DNA of 64,000 nt from Ophelia neglecta (Eukaryota): assembly GCA_965285935.1 (NCBI GenBank), contig OZ260662.1:35340001-35404000 (forward strand). The letters are read 5' to 3'. The notes beneath the pieces are model-generated. The model was not told where the DNA came from. It searched no databases and was given only the letters and a program-made list of their open reading frames with translations. The position numbers were made by a program, and so were the translations under genes. The first letter of the stretch is position 1. Each line of letters starts with the position of its first letter. Shown here piece after piece: positions 1 to 63,043 of this stretch.

Positions 1-613
1 AAATTGAATGAAAAATGATTGCTTCGTAGCATGAGTGGCACAATCCCAAAACCTTTTACATACTTGTAAGTCTTCAATAAGTATATAACTTAATATAAGC
101 AGGGAGAGCATTAAATATTAAGCTCCCCTTGTAAAAAGATGTTTGTCTACATGAGCCTACTCTGGGTACAAGATTACAGCAAAGGTGTTTATATATATAT
201 ATATATGTATATATATATAATGTCTGATTACAGGCACTACCTGGTCAACCTGCAGCTGAACATGTAGGTCACCATATAACTTGTTATATAGGTATGCTGG
301 GGCAGTTCCCCTGAGACAACTAGACATGAAACCTACCAATTTACATTGAAGCCTGCTTCGTACATTAAGACTTTTCATGTCACAGGAGTAATTTCACTAA
401 TATTTAGTCAAGAGCAGATCTAAAGTATTAGGATGTTTACATGGGAAATGTTGGCCATGGAGCAAGCCATCTGTGTAAAGGAAATTAATCTTGTCCGCTT
501 GTCAAAAAAGCACCATTTTGGAATAAAATCCATATGTAAATGTAACGCCCACTAACCACTCATGTAAACCTCATCATTAGCATTTCTGCCTAGAAGACCT
601 GCAACTTGGCTTG

Positions 614-22449: not shown

Positions 22450-22827
22450 ATGGCAGAAAAAAGAAAACCAACCACGAACTCGGCCACAAACGAGCCGAAA
22501 ATCACGAAATATCTTATACAGACACCTGGAGGCCCTAGCCAGAGTCATGATAAAAACAATAATGAATGTGATAGCCGGCCGGCAGATCAAATTTCAGCCG
22601 ACGAGACTCAGCCTCGGGCGCCAGGTGACTGCTCAACTTCAGCGACAGTGTGTGAAAGTAAAGGAGGTAAACACCTCGTGTTCTTGCCTAGCTGGCAAAA
22701 TAAATATCCGTGGCTGACATACGATGCAGGTAACAATAAAATGTTTTGTTCACTGTGCAAAACGTTTGGGTACACAAATACTATGGCACAGGGGACTGCC
22801 AATTTCAATTTTACTACTTTAATGTGA
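22450..22827 (+). pseudogene. Truncated hAT-transposase / ZNF862-like N-terminus (TTF-type zinc finger)
   Basis: MAEKRK...FLPSWQNKYPWLTYDAGNNKMFCSLCK...MAQGTANF matches the ZnF_TTF pattern. The ORF stops before the zinc-binding His residues. It is preceded by a GC-rich stretch with CCAAT and CACGTG motifs (22260-22385). Confidence 0.65.
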
Positions 22828-38384: not shown

Positions 38385-40013
38385 TTAACCAACTGTAAAA
38401 TCACGCATGTTGATAAAATTCCTCAATAATGCTGGAAGTGGCAAAAACTTAGAGTAATAAAATGGTGATACACCACCTGCAACTTTAAAAATATGTTTAC
38501 GAATTGTACTAGCTGATATTGCTTTCAAAGTGGGAAATGCATGTTCCTCGATAACTTTATAAATATCGTTAGCACAAGTTGATGGTTTGCTTGGTACTCG
38601 ATCTTTTACCAAATTAGCCAGCCAAATGGGATTTAAATTCCATAAAAAGAGCAAGAAATATTTTCGGTTCTCTGTTTTCGAGATCTTGGATACCAACGAA
38701 GCTAGAGTTATGTAGTCTTCTAATATTTCTTCACCCAGAGACTTTCCAATCAGATCAAACAAATCAAAGTCCATTCCGGCTCGTATCGAAAACAATGGAC
38801 GAACAGTAAACGGAAACTGAAGAAGTCGGAGAATCTGAGGCATTTCTGACATGAACGTCCCTACGGCTGGTCCTTGGAAAGATAAAGGATGTAAATCTCT
38901 GGTTTCTTTAACCAGATCAACGAGATGTCTACCACGGGAGTCTAGGACATTGATATCACCGCCAGCATCCTGCCAATAAGATATTATTTGCAGAGCTTTA
39001 ACAAAATCCTCCTCAGTCAAGTCATCCATGCCCTCTAGTTTTTCCACAGTGCAATGAAGCGCTGGCTTCTGCATTTCATTGCTATTGCTCAGAGTCCAGC
39101 CATTATGGTGTAGAAATTTCACCCCGTCCATACACAAATCGCCAACTGCAATATGCAGAAGGGAGCGCCCAGAAAGGCTGCTCGTCCCAGGACCCCAACC
39201 CCGACTGACAAGATACTCATACTTCCTACTAGATAATCTGCCTGTATTATTTTCTGATGTTTGTTTAGTTTGTTTGTAAGATACATGTTGCTGTAAGATA
39301 TATCTAGCTCCTCGATCAATAAGAAAATTTGCAACCTCGAGGCTGTGTTCTGCAAAATCCAAAGGAGTTTTATTTTTCAAGTTTCTAATGTTCACATTAG
39401 CCCCGGCAGATACCAATATTTTCACAATTGCGAAGCGACCTGTTGCACATGCCAAGTGTAAAGGAGTGTCCCCATCGGGAGCCAGCGTGCCGTTAATATG
39501 AGCATCATTCGCGATCAGATAGGACACTATGTCTAAAGCACCATTTTCACAGGCTAACGACAGGGCTGTGAATTCCTCAACGTTGTAGCCGAAGTCCTTT
39601 TCGACATCTATGTACAGTCCTTGCGAGTTGACATCGGCTCCCTGCAACACAAGCCTTTGGACCAGACTGAGGTCTTTCTGTCGGCAAGCAAATTCCAGGG
39701 GAAACGACCGAGAAATGAGGTTGCCAAAGGAGTCACAGTCGTCATACTGTTCACTGGACTCTAAACCGTTGTTCAGCAAATAGGAGAGTAGACTGTACCT
39801 ATGCTTTTTGCAGATCAAATATACACATAAACATCGTTCTTTTGAGCTAATGTGCTCCTGAATAAGGAAACCCTTCTTGAATGTCTCAATTAATTTAATG
39901 ATGTTGTTTTCTTCACAGGAAGACCGAAAATCAGCTAGCAGTTGTTGCTGTTTTTTCACCTTCATACTTCTGGTCGCCTTTTGGACGTTACTTTTGCCCT
40001 TGAACCAATCCAT
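38385..40013 (-). CDS. Ankyrin repeat and SOCS box (ASB-like) protein, intronless, 542 aa
   Basis: Ankyrin repeats (FPLEFAC...LVLQGADVN, TALSLACENGALDIVSYLI, GDTPLHLACATGRFAIVKILVSAGANVN, KTPLDFA, GRSLLHIAV) and a C-terminal SOCS box PTLKAISASTIRKHI...LPLPALLRNFI. A TATA-like element lies ~60 nt upstream. Confidence 0.9.
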   Translation of the reverse strand: MDWFKGKSNVQKATRSMKVKKQQQLLADFRSSCEENNIIKLIETFKKGFLIQEHISSKERCLCVYLICKKHRYSLLSYLLNNGLESSEQYDDCDSFGNLISRSFPLEFACRQKDLSLVQRLVLQGADVNSQGLYIDVEKDFGYNVEEFTALSLACENGALDIVSYLIANDAHINGTLAPDGDTPLHLACATGRFAIVKILVSAGANVNIRNLKNKTPLDFAEHSLEVANFLIDRGARYILQQHVSYKQTKQTSENNTGRLSSRKYEYLVSRGWGPGTSSLSGRSLLHIAVGDLCMDGVKFLHHNGWTLSNSNEMQKPALHCTVEKLEGMDDLTEEDFVKALQIISYWQDAGGDINVLDSRGRHLVDLVKETRDLHPLSFQGPAVGTFMSEMPQILRLLQFPFTVRPLFSIRAGMDFDLFDLIGKSLGEEILEDYITLASLVSKISKTENRKYFLLFLWNLNPIWLANLVKDRVPSKPSTCANDIYKVIEEHAFPTLKAISASTIRKHIFKVAGGVSPFYYSKFLPLPALLRNFINMRDFTVG

Positions 40014-41432
40014 TTTGCTTTAAAAATACAATTTCTTGTGCACAGGTCTCTGGATACTTTGTTTATGCCGAATATATAAGCTGGTCCGGAGTGATTTACC
40101 AAAGGCCAGGTACACAATTTGATTTCATCGCGCATTGATCTGCGCTATAGTAGGCCTTACACGAATGAAAAACGTCGTTGTAGTACAAAGTTCGTAATTC
40201 CTCTCCTACATATTTTGGATCTATATTTAGGCCTATTTCTACTGCACGACTCCGTGCATACGAATGATTGATTGATATGTAGATTCCAACTATAATCACG
40301 TGATGGTAAATGTCCCTGTGGATATATGTAGATAGATATATAATACCTCTTTATAGTTATATAGATAAAGTGAAACGTGTTCTATTTTTATTTATTGGGC
40401 ATAGGCCAAGAATCTCTGGTGTACGTAAATCGGGCAATATACACGGTAATCGAACATATTTTGAAATTTGGTTGTTTTTCATGATTGATAATAGTTTTGA
40501 CCTGAAGCAGGCGTCTAATGTACGTCATGGGTGTTTGGCACCAAATAAAAGTCTGTCTTATAACCGATTGTTTTGACATATATCATAGAGCGCAGGGGTA
40601 CAGCCTCGAATGTAGAGCTCAGACCCCTGCATAGGAGACAAGAGGGAGAAAACATAAACTTGTAAAAATTACTTTTAACTGTTTAAAAATCATTTATTAA
40701 ATACTCAAAAGCTGACCTATTTGATTTTTTATTACAAGAAATCTGTACTGAGCACACTATACAGGTCGGGAATCTTGAAGAAAGTGTTCTTTGAATGAAG
40801 CGTGTTCTACAGCTTCTATAGTGTGCCCTGAATAAAAACATGTGTTCAGAAGGAATTAAGGTAGCCCGCTCTGAGGGAAGAAACGTGTGTTGAGGTTAAA
40901 GCGCTCTAAATAAAGTTTATAGTGTGCACTGAAGGAAGCCTTAATTAACTTGGCACCTCTTTATGAGTACCTCATGGTGCAGTTGGGTAATAGACTATAA
41001 CAAGAATGTTTGTGCAGTGGCCCTATCATTGTTAAAAAATGAATTGTTGATGGATTTCGTAATTGCCAGCCATATCAAAACCAGAAGTAACACTTCTTCT
41101 GATATTATCCAAAATATACTACAAATTTCCTATCAGATTTTTAATAGTATTCAGTGAGTTAGTCGACTAGCATCTTTGTTTTTAAAGTTGAGTAAAATCC
41201 AGGGATATTGCCTGATCATTTTCATGGGTGTTTCTTGTTGATTAAACATGTTTAACAATTCAAGTACAATAATCACTGTGCTGTTGTAACTACATTTAAT
41301 GAATTTTATTCATTAAAGACATAATTCATTGAACAATCATCAACTTTTTGCTATCAAAATGTAATTTGACTTCCTTCCTTCGATCCTAAAGGTGGTTTGA
41401 AACTTAAATTTGTAAAATAAATTCAAAGAAAG

Positions 41433-42770
41433 TTAGACATAAAATTTAAGTTCACATTCAGACATATCATCTGGCCCCAATTCTGGACAGTCAAGGTCGT
41501 GTTTAATTTCTTTGTCTCTAATTTCAGTATTGGGAGTGTCTGTCTTTTTCCTTTTCAGAGAAGAAATGGGAGGCTGGCTGACAAAATTGTGCAATTCACC
41601 AAGTTCTTTTGCAGACCTTTTATGGGTAACTATTTCCTGGGACTCTCTATCTGGCTTATTATCAGTCTCATTTTTGACGATGGCAATCGTAGAATGCCCA
41701 GATCCTTTTAACACTGTAGTTTCCTGAGATGGCAGAATTGATTCATCAGAAGAATTTAAACTTTTGACACACGAAACTGTGTCATCTGGTAAAACTTCAG
41801 AAGTGTGTCCTTGACTTTCACTTATTTCCTTTTCTTTGATTGTACTTAAAGCTGAAGTAAGGAGTGAGTTTTTAAACTTGACAATGTCCTGAATGTAGAT
41901 GATAACTGATTTCTTGTTTACTGAAGCAGGAGAAACCCATGGTAATTCTCTGGCCAATGATATCATGACGTTAGTCATTTCAAATACCCTAGTAGATATA
42001 ACTTTTGTATCCACAACCCTGTGTCTTTTACAAAATTCAGACAGAGTTACTTTCATTCTTGTAGCCCAATCTTCTGACTTCCAGGCAAGATATGCAGCAG
42101 CTGAGATGAGATGTTGTGGCTTTCTTCCCTCCACCAGCCAGACACTTCTACAGACTTGTACAATCTGCTCTGTTAAACTGATCACAGTGTCATTAAAACC
42201 ATATCCTTTACACTGGGAGCTAACAAGGTCTTCCAAACAAATTGATGGAATCTCAATTGAAAATGTAGAAACAATTTCCCTCTTCCACCTTACAAACTCT
42301 GCTACTTTGCATCCTATAAATTGGCACATCTGACTGACAGTTATAGGCACATTGTTTTGTCTACATATGATATAAATGCATACACCTGCCATGACGATTT
42401 TGCTGCTGACTAAATGTGTTTTGAACTTAGGCTGATAAAAAACAGTCTTGAATGTCTCCTGGGCAGATTTCTTTCTTTCTGGAGGGAGCAGCAAGCAGGT
42501 GGCCAAATCATCCAGTATCTTCATACACTCCAGGAACCCCTTACATGGAGGCAGCTCAGAGTCGTTAGCTGCCCCATATACAGATGGTAAATTCTGACTA
42601 TATTGTTTAAATTCCTTTGAAATCACATTAGGAGCAAATTCACTGTTGTGAGGTTGGTCTGCAGTGAAACATCCCTCCTGGACAACTATACCACAGGCTG
42701 TGCAAACCTTCTGGCACTCGGCATCTTCCCACCTAAGAGCAGGCTGTCCACATGACGTGCACATCTCCAT
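41433..42770 (-). CDS. BRF2: Transcription factor IIIB 50 kDa subunit (TFIIB-related factor 2), single coding exon
   Basis: N-terminal zinc ribbon CTSCG...CTACG, two cyclin folds (GVCIYIICR; WLVEGRKPQHLISAAAYLAW), LARELPWV and a C-terminal DDMSECELKFYV TBP-anchor-like motif. The 445-aa length fits BRF2 rather than BRF1. A 5' UTR acceptor (CTAATTTCAG) lies at 42826. Confidence 0.88.
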   Translation of the reverse strand: MEMCTSCGQPALRWEDAECQKVCTACGIVVQEGCFTADQPHNSEFAPNVISKEFKQYSQNLPSVYGAANDSELPPCKGFLECMKILDDLATCLLLPPERKKSAQETFKTVFYQPKFKTHLVSSKIVMAGVCIYIICRQNNVPITVSQMCQFIGCKVAEFVRWKREIVSTFSIEIPSICLEDLVSSQCKGYGFNDTVISLTEQIVQVCRSVWLVEGRKPQHLISAAAYLAWKSEDWATRMKVTLSEFCKRHRVVDTKVISTRVFEMTNVMISLARELPWVSPASVNKKSVIIYIQDIVKFKNSLLTSALSTIKEKEISESQGHTSEVLPDDTVSCVKSLNSSDESILPSQETTVLKGSGHSTIAIVKNETDNKPDRESQEIVTHKRSAKELGELHNFVSQPPISSLKRKKTDTPNTEIRDKEIKHDLDCPELGPDDMSECELKFYV

Positions 42771-44189
42771 GACAATTTATTTTCCTCCGTCCCTAGGGTA
42801 TATTATAATATTTTGTGAGATGAATCTGAAATTAGAAAGATAAAAATATAAAGTTGTGTTTCCATGCCAGCACTGTTTGAAACTGTTTTAAAACATCATA
42901 ATTTCTTCAAGAAAATGTTGCTGGCAGCATAACAAGAAAATTGTCTGTCTCTACCATGCACTGAGCTACAGTGCCATCACAAAAGTTTTATTGACTGATG
43001 CTGTGTGGTTACTTGGAAAAAAAATGCATGTTGGGGATAGTTCATTTTAAGGGTGCTTACATATTATTTTAAAAACAGGAGCTTTGAAAAATACTAAAAA
43101 TAGATAAAAGCATTCAGAGTTTAATAGCCATGTAACCAATAACCATGTCAATTCATACAGTCTTTCATTACTTTAAATTATTTAAAACAAGCCATAACAA
43201 GGAAATCAGATAAAAAACATGCCCTTAAGGAGAAATAGGGCTATTATTCCAAGATTTAGGTGCAAAAGTTTAGAAAAGTTTATATTTAGTTGGTCTCCTA
43301 TACATTGTACGTAGACAAAGTTCATTAATACCTTTTTTGAATAACTGTTTGTGATCAGTTTGTTTTGATCGATATCTTAATCCTTAGGGCATTCCTCAGA
43401 GTCTTGATCCCAAATAGTGCACTTAATTCCTTTATTTAGTAAAAAAAAAATATATACATATGTACTGAACAAGGCATTCAGAAAAGCATACCCCCACCTT
43501 TTTGATGGGATAGTCAATATCTCCATCCCACCCATGGGAAAAATTTTCCTCTATTACTATATCGCCCAACCCCCTCCCAAAAAAATCTTGAAAAGCCATA
43601 ACAATACATGTTAATTACTACTAATTTGGAAAATTTGGTCAAAATCAGGTATTTGTCTTACCAGGCACACTGCATTTGACAGTGTTAACTACCTGGGCTG
43701 AACAAACCTGCCTTCCTATTGGACAACTGTATTGGATTCCTTGCTGGGATACACCCTCCCAGGCAAGAGCTCCCAATGTAACTGACCAATAGGAATATAT
43801 TAGCTTCATATTTCAGCCAGGAGACAGTCAGGACAGTAGCAATGTTAGAGGGTGTTAAACTTCTGATTGTTCAAACAATCCCAAGTGACCTGTAAACAAC
43901 TCAAATGCAATTAGTTAGGCACCATATATTAAATGTGTTATATTTCCTCCATACACTCCTCACACAAAACAAAAGGGGTTTAATAATTATCATTTAATTT
44001 GAGGTGACTCTAGTGTCACTTGTTGCATTTTAGGCAAATAGCGCCTGGGAAACAACATGTATAAAGTGAAGAATTATCTCAGGACCATCACATGATAGCC
44101 TTCACTGATCAGATGTGGTGTTGATAACAATGGCTAATAAGAAACCAAGAATGAAATTTCAAAGCAAAATGTAAACACTAATTAATTCA

Positions 44190-44575: not shown

Positions 44576-46110
44576 CTGGGACACAAGAAACAGGGATTGG
44601 AAGGCGGTAGTGTCCTTTGATGGCATCTATCACTCGCTATTGTTCTCGTGTTAATTATCTGTTATCTATCATCACTGGCGGCTCCTTTCATGTGATTACT
44701 TTCGTCAGGTGGCGTATCAGTTGCCTGCGGTGTCGATGCAGCATGTACACCAATATTACATCTGTCAAGTTACAAATCCCGGCCAGATCGACAAAAGTTA
44801 CTAGGCTCTAAAAACTATATCATGTTTCTTAGAGACCTGCCTCTAGTTTTAGGGGATGCAGCATAATAATAGCTTTAAAATGGTACATTTATTTTTGCTG
44901 TGGAATAGATATTTTGTTGAAAACTAAGATTATCAAATTCAAACACGGACATCTATATTACATCTGTCAGAAAATTAATCACGGCCAGATCGACAAAAGT
45001 TACTAGGCTCTAAAAACTTTATTATGTCTCTTAGAGACTTGCTTCTTGTATTAAGGAATGAAGCATAACATTAGCTTTAAAACGGCTCAAGGTTTTTTTG
45101 CTGTGGAATAGATATTTTGGTGAAAACTAAGATTATCAAATTCGAACACGTACACCAATATTACATCTGTCAAGTTATAAATCCCGGCCAGATCCACAAA
45201 AGTTACTAGGCTCTAAAAACTTTATTATGTCTCTTAGAGACTTGCTTCTTGTTTTAAGGAATGAAGCATAACATTAGCTTTAAAACGGCTCATGTTTTTT
45301 TGCTGTGGAATAGATATTTTGGTGAAAACTAAGATTATCAAATTCGAACACGTACATCAATATTGCATCTGTCAGAAAATTAATCGTGGCCAGATCGACA
45401 AAAGTTACTAGGCTCTAAAAACTTTATTATGTCTCTTAGAGACTTGCTTCTTGTTTTAAGGAATGGAGCATAACATTAGCTTTAAAACGGCTCATGTTTT
45501 TTTGCTGTGGAATAGATATTTTGGTGAAAACTAAGATTATCAAATTCGAACACGTACATCAATATTGCATCTGTCAGAAAATTAATCGCGGCCAGATCGA
45601 CAAAAGTTACTAGGCTCTAAAACCTTTATTATGTCTCTTAGAGACTTGCTTTAAGTTTTAAGGGCTGCAGCATAATGATAGCTTCAAAATGGTACTTGTG
45701 TTTTTGTTGTGGGGTAGATAGTTTTTGTAAACTAAGAATATTCAATATAATACCCAGCCAGGAGTGTAACCCAATCAATCCATGGCGGGATCAAGCCGTC
45801 TGGCCGTATCAATTTACTTGACCAGATACAGCCTTAACCAGGCTTCCCCTTTCTACAATACTTTATAGAAACAAATAATTCATAGGTACTGAAGCTTATA
45901 TTACATTGAAATCGACAATTTCTGTCAATAATTTAGGTAATTAAGTGATACACTCAAAAGAATTTTCATGATCATGGCGCTTCTCATGACGCTCACGCGA
46001 AATCGCGCAGAGTCTCGACGAGTGCGAGATCTTGTTACATAAACAATGGCCGTCTTTGAAGTTGCTTTGAAGGTCTTCACTGTTTCCAATCCCTGTTTCT
46101 TGTGTCCCAG
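44576..46110. mobile_element. TIR element carrying an internal ~202-bp tandem array (5 copies, ~44744-45745)
   Basis: Perfect 27-bp TIRs (CTGGGACACAAGAAACAGGGATTGGAA at 44576; reverse complement ends at 46110), flanked by GTTTAGT on both sides. The array landmark GATC.ACAAAAGTTACTAGG recurs at about 44786, 44988, 45191, 45393 and 45595. Confidence 0.85.
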
Positions 46111-48161: not shown

Positions 48162-51100
48162 ATGGCATGGCTTGGTAAAAAAGTTCCCATTGGAGTCACA
48201 AAGAAAATCCTCCAGGCCCCATCTGGATTGTTTTCAAAGTATCAGGTAAATATCCCAAACCAAACATAAAATATTATGATATTAAGTATAGTTTGGTATA
48301 CTAGATCCTCAGTGCCAGACTTTCCAATGTTGTTTTCAAACTTAATTAAATATTTGCAGGGCATTATTTTTTATTGCTTGGATTTGGTTGACATAAGCTT
48401 GTTTTTTTGGAAAAGATGTTCGACATTTTATAAATATTTACATTTCAGTGGATTTTTATTATAGAGTATAGTTGGTTTAACAGTGTGATTCACCTAGAGC
48501 AAAAGCACAGCAGGATTGATTCTGTTGAGAATTTTTTTTCAGAATTTGAATAGCTAAATTAACAACTTCTCCACTTCAATAATACAAGTGTTTAAAGTTT
48601 TTTCTGTTTTAATTTTTGTATTTTGTTTTATTTGCCCCCAGATATATCCATGGTCTGTAATACATAACGCGTGTGCCAGTAAGTGGTCATCAGAAGAAGT
48701 GAGGACAACCTTCATAGATTTTTATAAGGAGAGAAATCATAAACATGTTCCATCATCAACCGTTATACCAAAGAAAGGGGAAGGTTCCTACTTCATAAAT
48801 GCAGGGATGAATCAGGTATACCTCATGTTCACTGAGTTATGATTATTATTCATATATGTGTTAATGAGCATTCTTGGTCAGCTGGCCTGGACAGTGACCA
48901 TTTCAAGATCATATATTGATCTAATGTCAATGCCATAAAATTCAATATACATTTGGGGCTGTCTAAGACTGAGAGCTAAAAATAGTATTACTAATAAGGA
49001 TTGCAAGTATAGTATTTTTATTATAAATTTTTTATCATTACAGTTTAAGCCAATATTTCTTGGCACAGTTGATCCCTCAAGTGAACTAGCCTCTTATGAG
49101 CGAGTTGCTAACAGTCAGAAGTGTATCCGCATCAGTGGCAAGCATAATGACCTCAATGAAGTTGGGAAAGACACTTTCCATCATACATTCTTTGAAATGC
49201 TGGGCAGTTGGTCATTTGGCAACTATTATAAGGTATTGATATCATTAACTTTTCTTTTATTAGGACAATTAGATTATTCTATGTTAAGCCAACTAGAGCA
49301 AGTGAATGACATGCCATCACAGAACTCTACATTGTCATTGAACAATCCCAAGGCACAAAATATGGGTGGGGCTGCCCTGTCCATAGGGATCAGATCAAAG
49401 ATCATCAGATTTGGAAAGTGCTATGCATACAATTGTACACCCTGAATATGGGTGTACAACATCCCTGTCTTCCAAGTGGGTATCTGAAATTGGCCAGGAT
49501 GGGTCATAATACAGCACATTCCCTGACATTTTGATCCCTCCTGACCCTTATTTTGACCAAAGAGCAAAGAAACTGCACATTATACACTGTACTCATCATT
49601 ACCTCTGAAATGGTAATCTACATAAACATGTATTTAAAATAATTTAAAATGTCCCCCCCCCCTGTCCTACCCTCTACCACCGCCATGACTCTAGGGGTCA
49701 GACCCCAATTTTATGTGCATGTATTCTTCAATTTTGCAGAAAGAAGCATGTGAAATGGCTTGGGAACTGTTGACAAAAATGTATAAGCTGCCTCCTGAGA
49801 AATTGTATGTCACATACTTTGCTGGGAACAAATCTCTTGGATTGGAAGCAGATGAGGAGTGTAAAGAAATTTGGAAAGAGATAGGGTAGGAAAATGTGTA
49901 ACCAACGTAGAAAATAATTATTAGTTTAAGGCTAAAGTTTTCTAGTCAGCATTTTAATATGTGTCAAGCAGTAACATTTGATTGCTATTTATAGAGTATA
50001 CGTGGCACCATTAGCCAATGACTAAAAACTAATGCAGGCTATTGTGTTGGCATCTCTATGAACCCAAGGAGCATGAAACAGATGCCTAACCTATACAAAT
50101 TCAAATAGCTAGTTTTGTCTTTTTATGTTGTGAGCACTTTTGTGTATGAACTGTTTTTGTAACGGGAAGGGAAACTTGTTTTCTCATGTACTGAACATTT
50201 GGTCCAGTATGACCCAGCTCATACTGGGCTGAGGAATATTTGACTGGTCCAATAAAATAGTAGTCATAAATTTGCAATCAATTAAAAGGAAACTCTGAAT
50301 TTGTTAGTGCCACTTAAGACTAAGAAAAACCATGTTGAATTGTTTAAACTAAGACAAACCATGTTGAGTCGATGCACAGGCTGGGGCAGCTTGGAGCCGG
50401 TTCATTTCAGTATCAATAGAGTGTGCCCTCAGACTTGTAGTGGGCAGGCTTAGTCAGTTATTATAACTTGTGAGTTTAGTTTATGAGAATATAAACTATC
50501 AGACTATATCAAATATTTAAAATCAAATCTGGCACCATCCTAAGTGGGAAGAAAGCATAGCTGTGATTGGCCATTATTGGGGGATGTTGATATTTATGGC
50601 CAATCATACAGTGCTTTACATAGCATCCCATTTGTTCCTTTAGGGGAAACACAATGACCTGTAGGATGATGCAACTGGAAAAACCATGTAAACAAAGTGC
50701 TTTAACAAAGAAAGATTATTTTATGCATAGTTTGGACTCGAGAAATCCGGTTATCGACAGTTGTTCACTATCTATGTTAGTGTGTAAGATTTATTTTTGC
50801 ATGGAAAGATAATAGGAGGCAATTAAAAATGGGTTGTAATGGCATCTAAGTGGTTAATAAATCATGGTACAAACATCAGTAACTTTGAAATAAAGTATAC
50901 TTACTACCGGTATACTATCTATTAGAGCATTTTTAAGACTTTTGTTGTTTGTTCAATATCAGTTCATGATATTTATGCTTGTCTAGCTCTATCTACACTG
51001 TAGGTGGAAATATCTTTTCAATTCTTGTGGTGAACTTGGGGGTCACAGTTTGTCTACTTGTTGGTGACCTTGGTTAACTTGATTGTCAAGCCAAGATTTG

Positions 51101-54100
51101 AACATGATACAACATACAGTAGCATTTGTCTGAGACTTGATGGGTTACATGTATATAAACTTGATGAGGTATATGTTTATGTTTCCAAACATCTTGTTTT
51201 ATATTTCAGCGTTACCCCTGACAAGATACTACCATTTGGAAGCAAAGATAATTTCTGGGACATGGGAGATAGTGGTCCATGTGGTCCATGTACCGAAATA
51301 CATTTTAACCACACAGACGCGCCGAATGTGGCCCAACTAGTAAACAGTGGTGATCCCAGAGTTATAGAATTGTGGAATTTAGTCTTCATACAATTTGACA
51401 GGTGAGTGGTGAATAAGTGACGCCAGGTACTGTGAGCAGGGTATGATACTGCAGTATGTTGCAATAAGGTTTCCAAAATGTTAACCCCTGTTACCATCCT
51501 GCTTGGTCAGCTCCCTAATGTGTTTAATATATCAAGGTATCACTGTAACATACTTCAAATTTGGAATCTGAATTACTGGGAAAGATTGGAGAAGAAAAAA
51601 AGCTAATCAACCAATTATTTTCAGTTATGAACAATTTTATAATATTCTGTCTTCAATTGCTTATTTTACAGACAGATAAAAAATGTGTTGTTGCCTTTGA
51701 GGGCAAAGCATGTGGACACAGGAATGGGCCTAGAGAGATTAGTGGCGGTGCTGCAAGGGAAACAAAGCAACTATGACACAGATCTGTTCCAGCCTTTATT
51801 CAATCACATTCAAAATGTGGGTGGCAAATACATTTTTATATTTGATCCAATTTAGAATATGTCTTTCTCCAGTTGGTAAGGTAAATTGTTTTTCAATTTT
51901 CAGAAATCCAAATGCAGACCATATGGGGAAAATGCTATGGTAGATATTGCATATCGCATAGTGGCTGACCATGCTAGAATGGCCTCCGTAGCCATAGGGG
52001 ATGGCCTTCTTCCAGGCAGAGGAGATAGAGAGTAAGTACAAAGTTTATTTTATATCATAAACCAAGCGTTTGATTCACATAAATACAGTGATATTATTTG
52101 TCTTGATTTGCACCGTTACCTCATGCTATTTCTGTCATAATTTGTTTACAGCAGTCGACTGAGAATGGTGATAAACAGGGCTGTTAGACAGTGTAACTCT
52201 GTGCTGAAGGCCAAACCAGGCTTCTTCGGATCATTAGTTCCCATTGTAGCTGATTCATTGGTTAGCAAATATCAAATATTGTTTCATGCTTAAAATACCT
52301 GTGGAAGTATTGTAGAGTGAATCCTGATAAAAAAATTAATGTTATTATTCAAAATGATACATTGCAAATGGATTCAGTCACAAGATAATTAATGTGAACA
52401 TGAAATAAAAGTGACAGATCTTGGGTTGAGATATATATATATATATATATATACATGTAAACCCATGAAACAAAACCTACAAGTGGGTATATGGTTTACA
52501 CGTACAAAGAGAGCATAATAGGTATTATTGTCACTTATGAGGGCATTACCAGTAGGATAGCTCTATTTTACATGGGCCGTAAAACAGCGTAACCGTTGAC
52601 TGGTGACGTCAGAGCCAGTCCGCTTATGAGAGGCAGTCCACTTTCATTAGCGGATTTCATTAGCGGACTCCATAAATTATTAGCAGCCCGCCATAGTCAT
52701 AGCACCCTCGGCTACGCCTCGGGCGCTATGACTATGGCGGGCTGCTAATAATTTATGTCGGGCCACTGATATAGCATAACGCCCTGCAAAATCATGTTAT
52801 TGGTATATTAATGTCAGCATATGTGCTATATGTAATGGTTTTTCATTAATTTGTTTACACATTGTCAATATTTTTCAGGGTGGGGCATATCCCGAGCTAA
52901 AAGGAAAGTCCAACGAGGTAGGTGTATGTATTGACTGAACATTACCATACAAACAAAAGTATCGAAAAACAAGCTTGCTTTTTTTTGCCAAATAATTGGG
53001 ATAGATTTTCCATGTTTGTATTATAAATTGCTCATCAACAGAAATAACTTAAAACGATATTCTTAGTAGTGATGAAATTAATCAGTCAATAAAAGATCAT
53101 CCTCCAACGGTATTTGTTTTTGAAAACAGGACATCAACCATATAATTTCAGATTGAAAACATCATACAGCAGACTGAAGAGAGATATCTTTACAGCTTAG
53201 AAATGGGGCACAAAACAATGAAGAAAGCATGGTCCAAATATCGTCATGTAAAACAACTCAACGCTGAACAAATGCAAGAAATTTATTCAGGGAGATTTGG
53301 CAGGACTCTGTCAATTGATTTGATTGAAGAGATTGCTGGGGAAATGAACATTGGTTTAGATCTGGATAGCTTTCACCAGTTAATAAAGGCAGAAAAGGTA
53401 ATTTGATAAACCTGATAGCATTAAAGGAGTATATTCCGATATTAAGATGTGCATTAACATGTAAATGTTGAGCGTTTGGGAAAGTTCTGCATCTTTTCTC
53501 TTTTCATCAGTAAACATAAACCAACACTTTTTATCTGAATGCCCCTTTTAACTTTAAATTTCTAGGTTGAGGACGACGTTGAGGCTCCAGACTTCAAGAA
53601 ACTTCTTGACCAGAACCTACTCCAACAGCTGACTGAAATGAATGTGAAACCAACGGATGACTCCTTCAAGTATAAATATACCAGCATTCTAGGCCATTAC
53701 TGTAAGTTGCTTATTTACAATAATGGAAATAGGAGTTGCTTTAAACATTCTTCTGAATTATATATTAGTTTACAACAAGATCTGCTAACCACTCTTGTCT
53801 CATTCTAGTTTTGGAAGCACCTCCAGGAGTGGTGAAAGCCATCCTTCACAATGGGAAGTTAGTAGACAGTGTAGGTCCCAATGAGGAGTGTGGTATAATA
53901 TTAAGTAAGACCATGTTTTATGCTGAGTCAGGGGGTCAGGCCGGAGACAAAGGCTGGCTAGCATCATTTGAGGTGGGTACACCCTGTATGTAGGCTTTTA
54001 CATTGTGGCAGAATTTTCACAAGTTTAAAAATAATGGTATGATGGTTCTTATCTTTATTTTCATCTAGGGCTGTGATATAATAATAACAGATGTACAAAG

Positions 54101-57100
54101 AGTTCAAGACTATGTGATACATATTGGGACCATAGAGGGAGGAATACTACAGATGGATGATACAGTCCAAATGGCCATAGACCAAGTAGGCACCAATACA
54201 CCCGTACAAACTGAAAAATGATATTAAAAGGCTGTCAACATGACTTTATTTTCCATAATTCAGGGCAATTTTACAATCATTCAAAAATAATGGGAGATTC
54301 CCAACTTAACTGAGGTTATAACATAATTGCTAACGCTAACATGCTTATACATACAATGAAGGCATGATTTGACAATTGACACATGCAATGGATTAGGAGA
54401 AAGAAGGGGATTCTCCTTTAATATCAGGAAGGTTATAACGGATCTTATAAAACCACCCCAATAATGTAGTATGTGACACTAGTAACTATGAACTTATGCT
54501 ATTGCGATATTTTTTGTTTGGTACCTTTGCAGAATCACAGGGAGAAATGTATGAAGAACCACACAGGGACCCACATCCTAAACTATGGCCTTGGCCAGGT
54601 GCTTGGAAAGATACGCCAGGCGGGCTCCTCTGTCACCGCTGAAAAACTCTCCTTTGAATTCACGTCAGCTAAGGTTAGTTTGAGCTCTGTAAGTCTATTA
54701 AATGGCTAAATGTACATGGCATATGTAAAGGGAACAGATTCCCCCAAGCTGATGTATACATGCCAGGTTTTTTTTGTGATTCCATGGTCCATACATATAT
54801 ATATGTGATGTCCTCTCTTAGACGCACAGGTACGTGAGACACCTGTCCATTGCTACCTATGTGTACCTTTTTATACATAGTTATACATGGGTAGCACTGA
54901 GCAGGTGTCTTGCATACCTGTTCATGAATGTGGTTAAATCGATTTCACCTTTCTAACTGCATTTATGATGCTGATTTCGAAGAAATCTACTATTTAAGAA
55001 GTAACAGTACTCAATCCAAAGGGACAGCCCTTAAAGCATAATAATATACAAGGTTCCTTGTTTTGGTTCATATGTATATCTTGTGTAACTGTTTTTACAT
55101 TTCATTCTAGCCAAAGGTAACGTCTGACGATCTGAAAAAGGTAGCTGCTTTATGTAAGAAGCTGGTGATGGAGAAAGTACCTGTGATCAAAGGAGAAGTC
55201 CCTCTGAGTGACGCCAGACAAGTGAAAGGCCTTGTGATGCTGCCAGATGCCGTAAACAAAATTTGAATTTACTTTATCAACAGATTTTGTCATGAAATAA
55301 AAGCTTGTAGATGTTTCAATGGCCTACAGAATTCCAACAAAAAACTAACTTTGGTAAATTTCATATTATCAATGTATTGTGATGTCAAACTGAATGTTTT
55401 TGGAGAAAGCATCTGATTTCAGGTATATCCTAAGAAGGTGCGGGTAATTTCAATTGGGGCTGATCTAGAAGAGATAATAACCTATCCAAACAGTGGCCTT
55501 GCAGAGGAATTTCCTGTTGAATTGTGTGGTGGAACGTAAGTGTTTGACATTCTGATTCACATACATGTCCAGTGCAGATGTTTTCCATCGTTGATAATTT
55601 CATTGTGAGATCATAGCCCTCTGTTTGTAAAGTTTATTTTTTATCACTTGCAATTAATTGGTAAAGAAGAGGGATAACATATCCATGTCCTATGATATAT
55701 GAAATTGAGAAATGTTATTTAATGTTTTGTATGATACTAGCAATTCATTGTGTATATAATTTTGTTCAAAGATGAAGTCACCATATGACCATAAACTGAT
55801 GTTTCTTTAGAAAATGTTTTATCTCAGGCATGTAGACAATACAGGAGACCTGGTATCATTGGTGATCACCAATTTCCATGGGACAACTCAGGGTACAAGA
55901 TCTGTGACAGCCGTGACTGGTAACGCAGCCATACAGGCAAGTCTGACAAACTGGCTTGGTTACCGGCAATTCAGGCATGTCTGACAAACTGACTTGGTTA
56001 CCGGCAATACAGGCATGTCTGACAAACTGACTTGGTTACCGGCAATACAGCCATGTCTGACAAACTGACTTGGTTACCATCAATATAGGCATGTCTGACA
56101 AACTGACTTGGTTACCGGCAATACAGGCATGTCTGACAAACCGACTTGGTTACCGGCAATACAGGCATGTCTGACAAACTGACTTGGTTACCGGAAATAC
56201 AGGCATGTCTGACAAACTGACTTGGTTACCGGCAATACAGGCATGTCTGACAAACTGACTTGGTTACCGGCAATACAGGCATGTCTGACAAACTGACTTG
56301 GTTACCGGCAATACAGGCATGTCTGACAAACTGACTTGGTTAACGGCAATACAGGCATGTCCGACAAACTGACTTGGTTACCTGCAATACAGGCATGTCT
56401 GACTAACTGACTTGGTTACCGGCAGTACAGGCATGTCTGACAAACTGACTTGGTTACCTGCAATACAGGCATGTCTGACAAACTGACTTGGTTACCGGCA
56501 GTACAGGCATGTCTGACAAACTGACTTGGTTACCTGCAATACAGGCATGTCTGACAAACTGACTTGGTTACCGGCAATACAGGCATGTCTGACAAACTGA
56601 CTTGGTTTCAAGCAATACAGGCATGTCTGACAAACTGACTTGGTTACCGGCAATACAGGCATGTCTGACAAACTGACTTGGTTACCGGCAATACAGGCAT
56701 GTCCGACAAACTGACTTGGTTACCGGCAATACAGGCAAGTCTGACCAACTGGCTTGGTTACCGGCAATACAGACATGTCTGACAAACTGACTTGGTTACC
56801 TGCAATACAGACATGTCTGACAAACTGACTTGGTTACCTGCAATACAGGCATGTCTGACAAACTGACTTGGTTACCTGCAATACAGACATGTCTGACAAA
56901 CTGACTTGGTTACCTGCAATACAGGCATGTCTGACAAACTGACTTGGTTACCGGCAATACAGGCATGTCTGACAAACTGACTTGGTTTCAAGCAATACAG
57001 GCATGTCTGACAAACTGACTTGGTTACCGGCAATACAGGCATGTCTGACAAACTGACTTGGTTACCGGCAATACAGGCATGTCTGACTAACTGACTTGGT

Positions 57101-60100
57101 TACCGGCAATACAGGCATGTCTGACAAACTGACTTGGTTACCGGCAGTACAGGCATGTCTGACAAACTGACTTGGTTACCGGAAATACAGGCATGTCTGA
57201 CAAACTGACTTGGTAACCGGCAACACAGGCATGTCTGACAAACTGACTTGGTTAGCGGCAATACAGACATGTCTGACAAACTGACTTGATTACCGGCAAT
57301 ACAGGCATGTCTGACAAACTGACTTGGTTACCGGCAATACAGGCATGTCTGACAAACTGACTTGGTTACCTGCAATACAGGCAAGTTTGACCAACTGGCT
57401 TGGTTAGCGGCAAAACAGACATGTCTGACAAACTGACTTGGTTACCGGCAATACAGGCATGTCTGACAAACTGACTTGGTTAGCGGCAATACAGACATGT
57501 CTGACAAACTGACTTGATTACCGGCAATACAGGCATGTCTGACAAACTGGCTTGGTTACCGGCAATACAGGCATGTCTGACAAACTGACTTGGTTACCTG
57601 CAATACAGGCATGTCTGACAAACTGACTTGGTTAGCGGCAAAACAGACATGTCTGACAAACTGACTTGGTTACCTGCAATACAGGCATGTCTGACAAACT
57701 GGCTTGGTTACCGGCAATACAGGCATGTCTGACAAACTGACTTGGTTACCGGCAATACAGGCATGTCTGACAAACTGACTTGGTTACCTGCAATACAGGC
57801 ATGTCCGACAAACTGACTTGGTTACCGGCAATACAGGCATGTCTGACAAACTGACTTGGTTTCAAGCAATACAGGCCTGTCTGACAAACTGACTTGGTTA
57901 CCGGCAATACAGGCATGTCTGACAAACTGACTTGGTTACCGGCAATACAGGCATGTCTGACTAACTGACTTGGTTACCGGCAATACAGGCATGTCTGACA
58001 AACTGACTTGGTTACCGGCAGTACCGGCATGTCTGACAAACTAACTTGGTTACCGGAAATACAGGCATGTCTGACAAACTGACTTGGTAACCGGCAACAC
58101 AGGCATGTCTGACAAACTGACTTGGTTAGCGGCAATACAGACATGTCTGACAAACTGACTTGATTACCGGCAATACAGGCATGTCTGACAAACTGACTTG
58201 GTTACGGCAATACAGGCATGTCTGACAAACTGACTTGGTTACCGGCAATACAGGCATGTCTGATAAACTGACTTGGTTACCGGCAATACAGGAAAGTCTG
58301 ACCAACTGGCTTGGTTACCGGCAATACAGACATGTCTGACAAACTGACTTGGTTACCTGCAATACAGGCATGTCTGACAAACTGACTTGGTTAGCGGCAA
58401 AACAGACATGTCTGACAAACTGACTTGGTTACCGGCCATACAGGCATGTCTGACAAACTGACTTGGTTACCGGCAATACAGGCATGTCTGACAAACTGAC
58501 TTGGTTAGCGGCAAAACAGACATGTCTGACAAACTGACTTGGTTACCTGCAATACAGGCATGTCTGACAAACTGGCTTGGTTACCGGCAATACAGGCATG
58601 TCTGACAAACTGACTTGGTTACCGGCAATACAGGCATGTCTGACAAACTGACTTGGTTACCTGCAATACAGGCATGTCCGACAAACTGACTTGGTTACCT
58701 GCAATACAGGCATGTCTGACTAACTGACTTGGTTACCTGCAATACAGGCAAGTTTGACCAACTGGCTTGGTTACCGGCAATGCAGGCATGTCTGACAAAC
58801 TGACTTGGTTACCTGCAATACAGCCATATCTGACAAACTGACTTGGTAACCTGCAATAATAGATGTCATACATTTAGGTTGATTATTGTACCAAAAGTGT
58901 AGTTGGGAATTTTAACCAAATTGAAGGAATCACCTTTTATATTGTTGTCATTTAAAATGGGAATAATCGGGAGAATGGGTTTTGAATTTTCATTGAAAGT
59001 CAATCAGATCTGGGACTCATTGTTCGCATGACAATTTGGCTGAACATTATTATTTGGAGGATTAATTTTCAGGCTGAAATAATGGCTCAAAATTTGAAAG
59101 AACAAGTAGAAGAGTTGGAAAACTGGGTAAAAGTTGGATACAACAAAGAACAATGGACAATTAGATGTGAAGGAATTCAAAAGGTATGGAAGTTCTGAAT
59201 TACCTGGGAACTAAATCCCAGTATTAAACAGGCTGCTTAAACTTTATGTTGGAATTTTTATGTTAAAAATAATTATACAAATTCAAATCAGATTATATCC
59301 TTGTTCTCCGCCTTTTGTGTCTAAAGTAAGTACTTCCACATTTATTGCTCCTTATTTAGATTAGCAATATAAAGGCATGACCTTTCCAAGTCAATTGTTG
59401 TAATCATAAAACTTACCAAGAAGTATTTTAGTATGGTTGGATTGGACTTTGATCTCATGTTTGTATGTTTATTATTTCCCCAGAGCTTGTCTGGTGACAA
59501 TCACATTTTACCAAAAATAGATAGAGATAGCATCAAGACCAGACTTGACAAGCTCATGTATGAGACTATCAACAAGGAGAAAAACAAGTCCAAGAAAGAA
59601 TCCATGGAAGAGGTAGGTTGACATGATCAGGCTTTAGGTAGTTTTGTAATTGACCTTCAGTTAGGAAATATGTTCATGTATGAATTGTGGTGGAAAAGAC
59701 ATGGTCATTGAGAGAATATGAAATATTTAATTTATTGCAAACGAATTAAGTTTCAGGTCATAATCCATTTATTGAAATGCTTTAACTACAGTGTGGTCTT
59801 TTTTCAGGATTTGAGACGCATTATTGATTTAGAATCTCAGGAATATGTGATCACACAGTTCCAATTTGAGAAGATTAGAGATGTGAGTAGAGGAGTATAA
59901 CTTGTATGTCTGAATACTCTGTGACCTGGGTTCCAATTGAATTCCATGGATGGAGGGGGGGGGGGTGGAAATATGCCAGAAACACCCGTCCACTTCCGAA
60001 ACATGCAGTAACACAACAACCTATAACTTACTCATGCCCTGCTCATAAGGCTCAGACATCAGTTTTCCTCCATCTTGTTTTCAGATAGTCAGTGTGGTGA

Positions 60101-61174
60101 GCAGACTGCAGCCCATGAAGCCCGTCATGCTTCTCTCACATTCCAAGCAAACTAGAGACTTACTTCTAGGCCTGTGTTATTTCCCTAAGGTAAAGTACAA
60201 GTTTTTGTTTCTAATGTTTTAAATTGGGTAAAGCTGGGTAGGTCAGGGCCTGTTTGTCAATTCAAAATTCTTAATATTAAAAGATTGGACTATGAAATTG
60301 TGCATACATTTTTGCCTTTATTTAATAAGATTCATTCATCATATGGAGAGTCTCCTTGTTATTGGATGAAAAACACCAAATCGTTTAATATTGTTGTTGC
60401 TATGCAGTTCTTGGTGATTTGCAAGAAATGTTCTTCCGTTTGTACATTGCGCAAATATGTTCAGAAATTTCATTTAACGACTGTTATATAGAATAAAAAA
60501 GTAGAATATGAACCACAAATTTGACCTTTTCTTTAGGGTCAAAGCGCTTTATGGGACACAATGGTTGTCTCTGTAGCTAGTATATTTTGAAGAAAAAAGT
60601 TGCTGAAATCCTCTTACTTGAACATTATATTGATATTTGCTGAGGGTCAGATCTGCTTAAATTGATGTAAGGAAGTGGATGGTCTCTTCTAAATGTGTTT
60701 TATTCGATGGCTTTAAATCAAGTTTTGGCAGAAATTACCAAAGAAACCTTTAGTGGCAGGACATGTTAGCAATACATGCAGCGTTGAGCAGAACCTAGGT
60801 TATCTAAGTTAGTTTTGTCACAGAAAATGTGGGTGACCAATGTGCATTCAATTTTGTCAATTTCCAAAATTTCATTCATACATTGGATAACATTATGTTT
60901 TAGATAAATGTTGTTGACTAAAGCTGGGTCATACCATGCTTGTATCCTAGAAAATCAAATTACTTTGCATACTGGTGATATTAATTTTATCTTACAGAAA
61001 TTCAGAAATGGTCTTTCGGCCAACAGTTGGGCACACCATGTTACCTCATCCTCAGAGGGAAAAACAGGCTTGCCTGGAAAAACCAACGAGTTGGATTTAG
61101 CAACCTTCACAATAAAATTACAGGACAAACAACAAATAGACCATGTTACTGAGTTGGCAAGAACTTATATGTAA
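48162..61174 (+). CDS. AARS2: Alanyl-tRNA synthetase, mitochondrial type, 22 coding exons, ~989 aa
   Basis: Exons with consistent phases: 48162-48245, 48642-48815, 49044-49232, 49740-49885, 51210-51401, 51672-51816, 51904-52031, 52152-52260, 52879-52917, 53152-53397, 53566-53701, 53809-53972, 54069-54185, 54533-54673, 55111-55251, 55423-55535, 55828-55936 (GC donor), 59073-59183, 59484-59612, 59808-59882, 60085-60189, 60998-61174. Motifs: [87 protein letters not shown], and editing motifs NHTGTH and ELCGGTH. A basic N-terminal extension without acidic residues fits a mitochondrial presequence. Confidence 0.94.
52671..52757. repeat. 37-bp-arm palindrome, core of an interspersed repeat (~52510-52810)
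   Basis: CATAAATTATTAGCAGCCCGCCATAGTCATAGCACCC, loop TCGGCTACGCCTC, then GGGCGCTATGACTATGGCGGGCTGCTAATAATTTATG, with one mismatch. Confidence 0.9.
55937..58857 (+). repeat. 38-bp minisatellite, ~77 copies, starting at the GC splice donor of AARS2 intron 17
   Basis: Consensus GCATGTCTGACAAACTGACTTGGTTACCGGCAATACAG. Variant units recur at offsets of 380 and 874 bp (10 and 23 units). Confidence 0.97.
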
Positions 61175-61941: not shown

Positions 61942-63043
61942 CATAGATATAGGGAATACATAGATTCGAAGCAAGTAGTATTTCTGGCTGGCCTTTGCCC
62001 TGCGAGATTTGAACGGGGTTTCGTGAGATACGGCTGCGAGATTTAGGGACCATTGATTGAATCATAACTTAGCTTCTGTTCCAGCCAATAATTCATCACT
62101 TTCATCAACATTTCCGATGGATATGACGGATGATCGTAGTTAAAAATTATGTCATTCACATCAGCATATAAAACAGCTTACAGACAAGATAAAATCCAAG
62201 ATTTTACTCCAATTTAACAGCAGTCAAAGGGCAATTTCGCTACGATGCGATGTCAATGGCTTCAACTGCACATACATGTACATGTAGATATAAACACACG
62301 AATCCAGAATATATGTTACAGAAAAGAATATATAAGAGCCAGCCTCGTGTAGTTTTTTGAATCATTTGTCTCAATTATTAGAGAATCATAATAATAAGAA
62401 TAGAATATGCTATTAAGATGTTAACTTTTGTCTATAGTCATTCTAGTTTGGCCATTTTTCTCCCACCTTTAGTTCAGCCAGGCCTATCTGGCCGAGCAAA
62501 TCCTCGAATGTATTGTTGTTCAACATTATATTTTACAGAAAAGAATATATAATTGCTAGCCTCATGTAGTCTTTTGTATCATTTGCCTCCATTATTAGAG
62601 AATCATAATAATTAGAATAGAATATGCTATTAAGATATTAACTTTTGTCTATAGTGATTCTAGTTTGGCCATTTTTCTCCCACATTTAGTTCAGACAAGC
62701 CTATCTGGCTGAGCAAATCCTCAAATGTATGTTCCACAATATATGTTACAGAAAAGAAGATAAAATAGCTAGCCTCATGCAGTCTTTTGAATCATTTTCC
62801 TCAATTATTAGAGAATCATAATAATGAGAATTGAATAGGCTATTAAGATGTTAACCTTTGTCTATAGTCATTCTAGGTTGGCCATTTTTCTCCCACCTTT
62901 AGTTCAGCCATGACTATCTGGTTTGTGTGTTTTGGATACAAGAGGCGACACCTAGCGGAAATTTTCCAAACTGCTAGAGTGAGGCTAAGGCCTTATAATG
63001 GCGCTAATGGCAGTTGCTAATCTATGGATTATATATATCTATG
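61942..63043. mobile_element. P-element-like non-autonomous transposon with an internal ~215-bp tandem array (~3 copies, ~62310-62920)
   Basis: Imperfect TIRs CATAGATATAGGGAATACATAGATT and AATCTATGGATTATATATATCTATG. The 7-bp TSD ATACCAT occurs at 61935-61941 and 63044-63050. Confidence 0.82.

Follow-up and report, generated by a model that had tools for sequence, protein, structure and literature searches.

An AARS2-like gene with a predicted GC-AG intron

The window, a stretch of 64,000 nucleotides of Ophelia neglecta (GCA_965285935.1, OZ260662.1:35,340,001-35,404,000, forward) to which all coordinates refer, carries an AARS2-like gene at 48642..61174 (+; all features named below lie on this strand). 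We modelled 21 coding exons, the start-codon exon or exons upstream not being located. The joined model is open over 961 aa, is 35-44% identical to AlaRS and contains 19 GT-AG introns and one GC-AG intron (55936 to 59073). Because the short exons alone matched no Pfam or PDB entry, the assignment rests on the joined model. In a quick tree of 24 of the 59 long homologues the protein, on a long branch, split with vertebrate mitochondrial AlaRS (SH-aLRT 99), and a separate AARS1-like (cytosolic) paralogue gene is present in the genome, on C5. The tree placement and the distinct cytosolic paralogue point to AARS2, the mitochondrial alanyl-tRNA synthetase.

The GC-AG intron separates an exon of 109 nt (55828..55936), the homologue of human exon 17, from an exon of 111 nt in phase 0 (59073..59183) placed by the protein model and the homologue alignment. 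The number 17 follows from human exon 16 being c.2146-c.2255 in the accessible text of PMC13095664; the literature yielded no direct confirmation that human exon 17 stops at the homologous base, as c.2364 is absent there and c.2255 and c.2487 fit either split. A metagenome scan with exon 9 for orthologous intron DNA gave 147 pattern hits, none of them confirmed and none from a relative, and a protein search with the same exon found no relative among 25 candidates (0/25). The sequence-only reading had held that a GC-AG intron is needed to keep the frame, and this agrees with both the open model and the homologues, 58/59 of which (full-length AlaRS) align without gaps over the 55936/59073 junction while the remaining one ends earlier.

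The predicted true donor (55934..55945; intron start at 55937, CAG/GCAAGT) pairs at 9 of 11 positions with the genome's own U1. Given that the GC and AG ends keep the frame and that the remaining donor positions match U1, the model places the intron in the U2-type GC-AG class. In five model species this class accounts for 0.37-0.87% of U2 introns (accessible parts of PMC1557818 and PMC2490688), and according to the same sources GC donors depend on the rest of the consensus; here too GC at +1/+2 is combined with an otherwise perfect U1 match, and the donor itself shows no difference from the class. A U1 variant adapted to GC was rejected, since of 42 U1 loci found, 10/10 of those read have the standard 5' end. 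An assembly error was also rejected, since the donor and the first unit of the adjoining array occur unchanged in contigs with differing flanks from 3/3 DNA runs, all from one sample of one study and possibly the source of the assembly.

That the GC site is a decoy, the real donor lying elsewhere, is scarcely credible. The alternative would be a weak GT site within the exon (55920..55925), which coincides with the intron position of the AARS1 paralogue, 17 nt upstream of the GC donor and within the Gly codon of the same motif. However, with a genome-trained matrix (18 + 19 = 37 GT donors, among which a few AARS1 junctions may be some bases off; two further AARS1 junctions, one miscalled as GC and one unsolved, were left out) this site scores -2.2 vs 8.0 for the GC site. 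Joined to 59073, it shifts the frame; joined to a phase-compatible upstream acceptor at 59008, it replaces a near-invariant Gly and adds 16 residues. Indirectly, two sea-bass AARS2 models also speak against it, as they diverge at most 1 base from the homologous boundary. In-frame GT sites within the exon were rejected as donors because the conserved motif would be deleted.

A single-locus minisatellite spanning the donor junction

The intron opens with a 38-bp minisatellite (55931..58858) of 77 units belonging to 32 unit types, which TRF called with period 38, 77.1 copies and 93% matches, bearing out the earlier description of about 77 copies over some 2.9 kb. Blocks of units are duplicated inside the array (units 25-38 resemble 48-61, and 44-50 resemble 67-73), and variant counts are thereby inflated. 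Beyond the array the rest of the intron, which includes the acceptor, is unique sequence (58859..59072), although its first ~14 nt may be a degenerate partial unit. In exact or near-exact searches 30/30 exact 16-mer matches and 33/33 DNA-search matches fell inside the array, so that a dispersed satellite family was rejected. The array is a locus-specific minisatellite, not the satellite it had been called, and the check for the 38-mer elsewhere in the genome, which could have made its likeness to the exon coincidental, returned nothing beyond the array. Contigs of run X2 hold one unit variant missing from the assembly. Unrelated intronic minisatellites are common in the genome, as seen in the AARS1 gene, which has 4 larger, unrelated arrays in 17 kb.

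The end of the exon resembles the unit. Exon positions -34..-7 match unit positions 5..32 better than 2999/3000 unit shuffles, and the end of exon 55828-55936 scores 16 against the unit while the other 19 exon ends score at most 8. This upholds both the proposed resemblance of the unit to exon end plus donor and the proposal that the junction was amplified, the array starting at the GC donor. The homologous exon end, which we call unit 0 (55905..55936), corresponds to unit positions 8-38 and begins with TGACA at 55905 (exon -32), a 5-mer that recurs 39 nt on at 55944 (intron +8). With the boundary taken from the protein model, the first unit thus appears to span the exon-intron boundary.

Among the 76 downstream junctions 56 read CAG/GCATGT, 11 CAG/ACATGT and 3 CAG/GCAAGT, and 6 are singletons; the sequence-only reading was right that the first two predominate and that GCAAGT is kept in three copies only, in units 22 (56735..56740), 39 (57381..57386) and 75 (58748..58753). 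Two of its details needed amendment. The lineage carrying A at +4 has, besides these three intact decoys, a fourth member in unit 63 (58292..58297), where C>A at +2 has produced a dead GAAAGT. The variant linked to GCAAGT is indeed linked, but not exclusively, as CTGGC also occurs in three GCATGT units (57533, 57685, 58558).

Strength, variation and predicted accessibility of the donor copies

T at +4 occurs in 72/77 units and A at +1 in 11, and each lowers U1 pairing. The duplex with U1 is -5.8 kcal/mol for GCATGT vs -7.4 for GCAAGT, and 12 of the 37 real GT donors pair with U1 no better than GCATGT. The claim that the donor is weakened in most copies holds insofar as these copies pair more poorly with the genome's U1, but GCATGT is weakened and not dead.

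Variation within the array is not concentrated in the donor. Variant alleles at -3..+6 number 7/31 vs 7.3 expected (binomial p=0.63; a weak test, with 31 alleles from one haplotype, and blind to a past sweep), and variant cells at these positions number 20/101 vs 23.9 expected. The commonest polymorphic variant, T at position 29 in 17 copies, lies outside the donor. The strong-donor (+4A) lineage has multiplied within the array to 4 internal copies, and 7 units have gained TTG/GTTAGC, the 9-mer of the real intron-7 donor of the same gene. With 5-12 fixed differences per 38 nt, the 9-nt donor core would be hit 76-98% of the time in any case. Together, these observations lend no support to the earlier proposal that decoys were selected against.

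The predicted true donor is also a quasi-palindrome with 4/6 symmetric pairs, and +4T and +1A perfect a 12-bp palindrome at the junction, a property noticed post hoc. Both common donor variants are among the 4/27 substitutions that do so (post hoc, about 0.01), a pattern compatible with mutation bias and equally with selection for self-masking; a mutational cause of both variants may underlie this pattern. A general bias towards perfecting palindromes across the unit was rejected, alleles that extend palindromes not being enriched over the whole unit (4/30 vs 16/114). Neighbouring decoys are predicted to pair together. The predicted opening energy is 2.8-3.1 kcal/mol for the true donor (median 2.85 for the gene's 20 donors), and for +4T copies and intact decoys the medians are 6.4-7.3 and 4.1-6.3, respectively. 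With +4A placed in every copy in silico, the true donor is still the more open, at 2.7-2.9 vs 4.7-5.6.

Predicted consequences of decoy use

Reading through from the exon into the array meets an in-frame TGA in unit 2 (55982..55984), as had been stated. The further claim that downstream donors truncate the protein stands in that 6/6 decoys tested give a premature stop, at least 4 junctions lying downstream, but the unit-2 donor does so through a frameshift in the next exon and not through that TGA. Use of the intact decoys, which lie 798-2811 nt downstream, would need exons of 907-2920 nt. The decoys are probably silent owing to their downstream position (first-site preference, which has been tested for F7), the oversize exons that they would need and their predicted burial in RNA pairing, and rare leaks would decay as noise.

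Discussion

The array belongs to the known class of junction-spanning (F7-type or mirage) minisatellites, being a single-locus, head-to-tail repeat with a unit within 10-160 bp that reiterates a donor-like site (3 identical and 56 one-base-different of 76). The comparisons that follow keep to the accessible text of each source. The 37-bp VNTR of human F7 intron 7 has a nearly equal period, its first unit also spans the junction and its donor is reiterated in the intron; it differs in its GT donor, in including 4 nt of exon and in having 5-9 units that are identical (PMC1557585), against 77 units, a GC donor and about 32 exon-derived nt here, and at +4 most AARS2 copies depart from the true donor. 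In mammalian cells the F7 pseudo-sites, identical to the true GT donor, stay unused (Borensztajn et al. 2006, PMC1557585). Intronic arrays that repeat the donor over 10-25 units are likewise described in CBS intron 13, interferon-inducible 6-16 intron 2, LMNB2 and PDGF intron 4; LMNB2 and PDGF use the first donor only, and the two nearest pseudo-sites are active in CBS and 6-16 (PMC1557585), so the silence of decoys here is no certainty. Among invertebrates, the mirage minisatellites of amphioxus (Adh3, BflGb6, BflGb9) are similar tandem duplications at boundaries, concerted inside and divergent at the edges; that text reports no disturbance of splicing, gives 3-6 units for the globin mirages and mentions neither a GC donor nor a self-complementary junction (PMC3087553). 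Repeat-driven intron formation also involves tandem repeats at boundaries that are able to create or move splice sites (PMC2812944; PMC2891723). In contrast to that process, the AARS2 acceptor is part of unique sequence and stands 214 nt beyond the array; the two ends of the intron thus do not both come from the array, and gain of the intron through the array was rejected.

The reading that we prefer, with a probability of about 0.64, is that the array is a junction minisatellite in which the spliceosome likely keeps to the first donor and weaker copies likely spread without selection, and that it arose by a short duplication of the junction and grew by unequal exchange. Slippage between the TGACA 5-mers 39 nt apart would have copied 32 nt of exon plus the 7-nt donor, and unequal exchange likely enlarged the array thereafter, the exonic copy being held by coding constraint while the array was homogenised separately. 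Purifying selection would act on unit 1, keeping the +4A that a GC donor needs, and not on the copies. The degenerate 3' tail that slippage predicts gave a match that is not significant (139/1000 shuffles).

Selection may instead have shaped the copies, +4T having swept because it disrupts pairing with U1 and enables adjacent decoys to form a 12-bp helix, which would shield an essential gene with a weak GC donor. The prevalence of +4T and +1A favours this, as do the T type of the unit nearest the true donor, the predicted rise in unit-2 opening energy with +4T (from 3.2-5.8 to 4.1-7.9) and the stability of junction-junction duplexes, -17.6 (T/T) and -18.8 (palindrome) vs -11.1 kcal/mol (A/A). 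We consider it rather unlikely, however: donor alleles are not enriched, 3 intact decoys remain and their lineage was amplified, new GT sites reached 7 copies, the consensus exonic positions -6..-1 are unaltered, the true donor is predicted to be more open than the decoys even when these carry +4A, and the argument assumes A to T polarity at +4. Decidedly improbable, in our view, is the related proposal of a self-silencing array, in which 12-bp palindromes zip the decoys away from U1, +4A spares the true donor and selection for self-masking let 77 copies accumulate. A rheostat, in which residual decoys are used according to array length and tune the AARS2 level by nonsense-mediated decay, would draw on the premature stops of all decoys tested with their downstream junctions, on the unit variant in DNA-run contigs, which makes the array polymorphic in make-up, and on the near pseudo-sites used in CBS and 6-16 (PMC1557585, accessible text); but the intact decoys are distant, require very long exons and are predicted to be less accessible, which leaves this a very slim prospect.

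A different origin is also conceivable, in which the whole 109-nt exon was duplicated head to tail via the CAG/G at both its ends and trimmed to 38 nt; GCATGT would then be ancestral, the GC donor would have been born from the first bases of the exon, and +4A would have improved unit 1 only afterwards and leaked from there into the array. The exon's acceptor junction, CAG/GCATGT, is identical over its 9 nt to the commonest junction of the array. Unit positions 1-15 score 16 against the start of the same exon, a level reached at 1/2866 coding positions, at least 8/122000 window positions and 315/20000 simulated GC intron starts, and this likeness the slippage model leaves to chance. Provided that no recombination took place and that A18 is the ancestral state, an implication of the exon's Thr codon, the haplotypes T4/A18 (69), T4/G18 (3) and A4/G18 (5) form a nested series rooted in T4. 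Intron gain via duplicated AG/GY sites has been described (PMC2891723, accessible text). However, the junction identity was spotted post hoc, and +4T could also have come about through the palindrome; past the hexamer the match to the exon start falls short of significance (about 0.18), a single crossover would account for the haplotypes in a different way, and a frameshifting intermediate plus an extra deletion are required. Exon remnants beyond the array were rejected, 197/2000 shuffles matching as well. We regard this origin, too, as distinctly unlikely; the boldest version of the self-silencing proposal would combine it with a GC donor born from such a head-to-tail copy of the exon start.

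As it stands, the junction minisatellite of AARS2 adds one large example with a GC donor to a known class, and its strong, weak and dead donors, which share one register, make it a handy substrate for minigenes. If its copies were shaped by selection or mask one another by pairing, splicing fidelity would steer tandem-repeat sequence, and the array would be a natural test of what keeps downstream pseudo-donors silent.

A GC-AG intron keeps the AARS2-like gene in frame

The 21 exons of the AARS2-like gene (48642 to 61174) join into a single frame of 961 aa. Of the introns between them, 19 are GT-AG and one, from 55936 to 59073, is GC-AG. The modelled protein shares 35-44% identity with 59 long AlaRS homologues and aligns without gaps over the GC-AG junction in 58 of the 59, bearing out the sequence-only reading that this intron is needed for the frame. 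A quick tree, in which the model sits on a long branch, groups it with vertebrate mitochondrial AlaRS (SH-aLRT 99), and a separate AARS1-like gene is present on C5. Since the exon at 55423-55535 has the phases of human AARS2 exon 16, reported as c.2146-c.2255 (PMC13095664), exon 17 is a fair name for 55828-55936.

In the AARS1 paralogue the corresponding intron lies 17 nt earlier, in phase 1, and neighbouring intron positions are common to both paralogues. The AARS2 exon carries a GT (55920) at exactly the AARS1 intron position, forming a near-intron pair; as a donor this GT is weak (matrix -2.2 vs 8.0) and yields the homologous protein from no acceptor. Introns of the AARS1-like gene hold four older minisatellites, in its stretches L021 (3663-3961, period 56; 4709-4908, period 32) and L022 (1271-1680, period 75; 4146-4921, period 37).

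Elsewhere in the window we found a ubiquitin C-terminal hydrolase gene (9000-17700, minus strand), an ankyrin-repeat frame (38385-40019, minus), a BRF2-like frame (41433-42776, minus) and a zinc-finger fragment of C17orf113 type that probably derives from a transposon (22318-22827, plus). Amid these intron-rich animal genes lies an intronless 319-aa frame (27096-28055, plus) that contains a pair of diaminopimelate epimerase domains (PF01678, E 1.6e-31) and whose best PDB matches are DapF. Animals are generally held to lack the lysine pathway of this enzyme, so the frame was possibly acquired by horizontal transfer.

A single array of 38-bp units begins at the donor

Tandem Repeats Finder returned one array at 55931-58858 (period 38, 77.1 copies, 93% matches). 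With units cut in donor register, unit 1 begins at 55937 and reads CAG|GCAAGT, and the 76 later junctions read CAG|GCATGT (+4T; 56), CAG|ACATGT (+1A; 11) or CAG|GCAAGT (3, at 56735, 57381 and 58748), the remaining 6 being singletons, among them GAAAGT at 58292. The copy number, the two prevailing variants and the retention of GCAAGT at three sites only are as first noticed. The 38-mer was sought across the 762-Mb assembly and found at the AARS2 locus only, all 33 DNA-search matches and all 30 exact 16-mer hits falling inside the array. Contigs of three DNA runs, made from a single sample that may also have supplied the assembly, all keep the donor and unit 1 unchanged; the flank differs from the window and between the runs, and one run holds a unit variant not present in the assembly. 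The array has visibly grown by block exchange, units 25-38 matching 48-61 and units 44-50 matching 67-73.

Two other tandem arrays lie beside the gene (44745-45741, 202 bp x 4.9; 62303-62921, 217 bp x 2.9). A 35-nt intron stretch at 54826-54860, matched by contigs of all three runs that then enter other sequence, is either a short dispersed repeat or an insertion polymorphism.

Origin of the unit

Exon positions -34 to -7 align with unit positions 5 to 32 at a score of 16, the six identical donor-adjacent bases left out. Shuffled sequences attained this score once in 3000 trials for the unit and never in 300 for the exon, and none of the 19 other exon ends attained it. This supports an origin of the array from the exon-intron junction, as had been proposed, and because the exon encodes a conserved motif it is probably the source, with the repeat as its derivative. 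Short direct repeats can seed minisatellites, and TGACA at 55905 is found again at 55944, 39 nt on; slippage between these copies would have duplicated 32 nt of exon plus a 7-nt donor, near the period. Fading of the tail past unit 77 at the same 5-mer position was not significant (139/1000). A minority reading is that the whole exon was duplicated head to tail and trimmed to 38 nt, so that the unit joins exon end to exon start: the most frequent array junction is identical to exon 17's own acceptor junction (a post hoc observation), and the unit start matches the exon start and no other of 2866 coding positions, but 1.6% of simulated GC intron starts match equally well and the match is not significant past six bases. 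The first 18 nt of the exon (55828-55845), which bear on this reading, hold the unit's first six and last eight letters.

The array belongs to an already known kind of junction-spanning minisatellite; the ABCA7 VNTR may be a further relative. As in the AARS2 array, the first unit of the 37-bp minisatellite in human F7 intron 7 lies across the junction, and its identical pseudo-donors are described as functional yet unused; among other donor-repeating cases the same source lists 6-16 and CBS, where two near pseudo-sites are used, and LMNB2 and PDGF, where only the first donor is (PMC1557585). Lancelet 'mirages' are an invertebrate counterpart (PMC3087553), and repeats at boundaries are reported to alter gene structure (PMC2812944; PMC2891723).

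Array copies are modestly weaker donors

U1 has the standard 5' end at all 10 loci read, of 42 found; about 33 of the 42 form a cluster on C5 (about 105.66-106.54 Mb, spacing ~1.36 kb). Out of 11 pairs with U1, the true donor forms 9 (-7.4 kcal/mol) and GCATGT 8 (-5.8 kcal/mol), so that the copies are indeed weakened, though modestly, and 12 of 37 real GT donors are equally weak or weaker. GC donors are reported to rely on the remaining positions (PMC2490688; PMC1557818), and +4T therefore likely counts for more here. All six decoys tested are predicted to reach a premature stop, in keeping with the expected truncation; the TGA at 55982 accounts for five, whereas unit 2 truncates by frameshift. 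In each unit (55937-58858), CTGAC motifs that resemble branch points also lie 21 and 29 nt ahead of a CAG, making the junctions acceptor-like as well despite a poor pyrimidine tract, and 38-nt poison microexons are conceivable.

Selection against the decoys is possible but unsupported. In units 2-76, variation inside -3 to +6 is at chance level (7 of 31 alleles, 7.3 expected; 20 of 101 variant cells, 23.9 expected), giving no excess of the kind the sequence-only reading implied, although this test has low power and is blind to an old sweep, and +4T is carried by 72 of 77 units. Against such selection, the +4A lineage has grown to 4 internal copies, 3 of them intact, and 7 units have acquired TTG|GTTAGC, which is identical to the 9-mer at the real donor of intron 7, though this is the weakest donor of the gene; moreover, given 5-12 fixed differences, chance would place one within the donor core in 76-98% of cases. 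As to the direction of the +4 change, the haplotypes (T4/A18, 69; T4/G18, 3; A4/G18, 5) root on T4 assuming no recombination, an argument that one crossover undoes. Control of AARS2 by NMD through the decoys is speculative.

A self-complementary junction may keep the copies silent

Positions -3 to +9 form a quasi-palindrome with 4 of 6 symmetric pairs at the true donor, 5 with +4T and 6 with +4T and +1A. Only 4 of 27 core substitutions add a pair, and both common variants are among them (about 0.01, post hoc); palindrome-perfecting mutations are a known class for quasi-palindromes (PMC3820800). Across the whole unit no bias toward such changes was detected (4/30 vs 16/114). Pairing between T-type junctions is predicted for the RNA (-17.6 vs -11.1 kcal/mol) and also appears in the predicted fold. 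Predicted opening energies are 2.8-3.1 at the true donor and 4.1-6.3 at the intact decoys; among the +4T copies the median is 6.4-7.3 (lowest 3.0-4.6). With +4A placed in every copy in silico, the copies (4.7-5.6) are predicted to be still less open.

Most likely, the first GC donor would be the one used, with the copies silent owing to their downstream position, the exons of 147-2920 nt that they would require and the predicted pairing. Ordinary purifying selection would keep +4A in unit 1, and leaked transcripts would be decayed. It is the combination of a GC donor with a self-complementary junction that would make this array worth testing.
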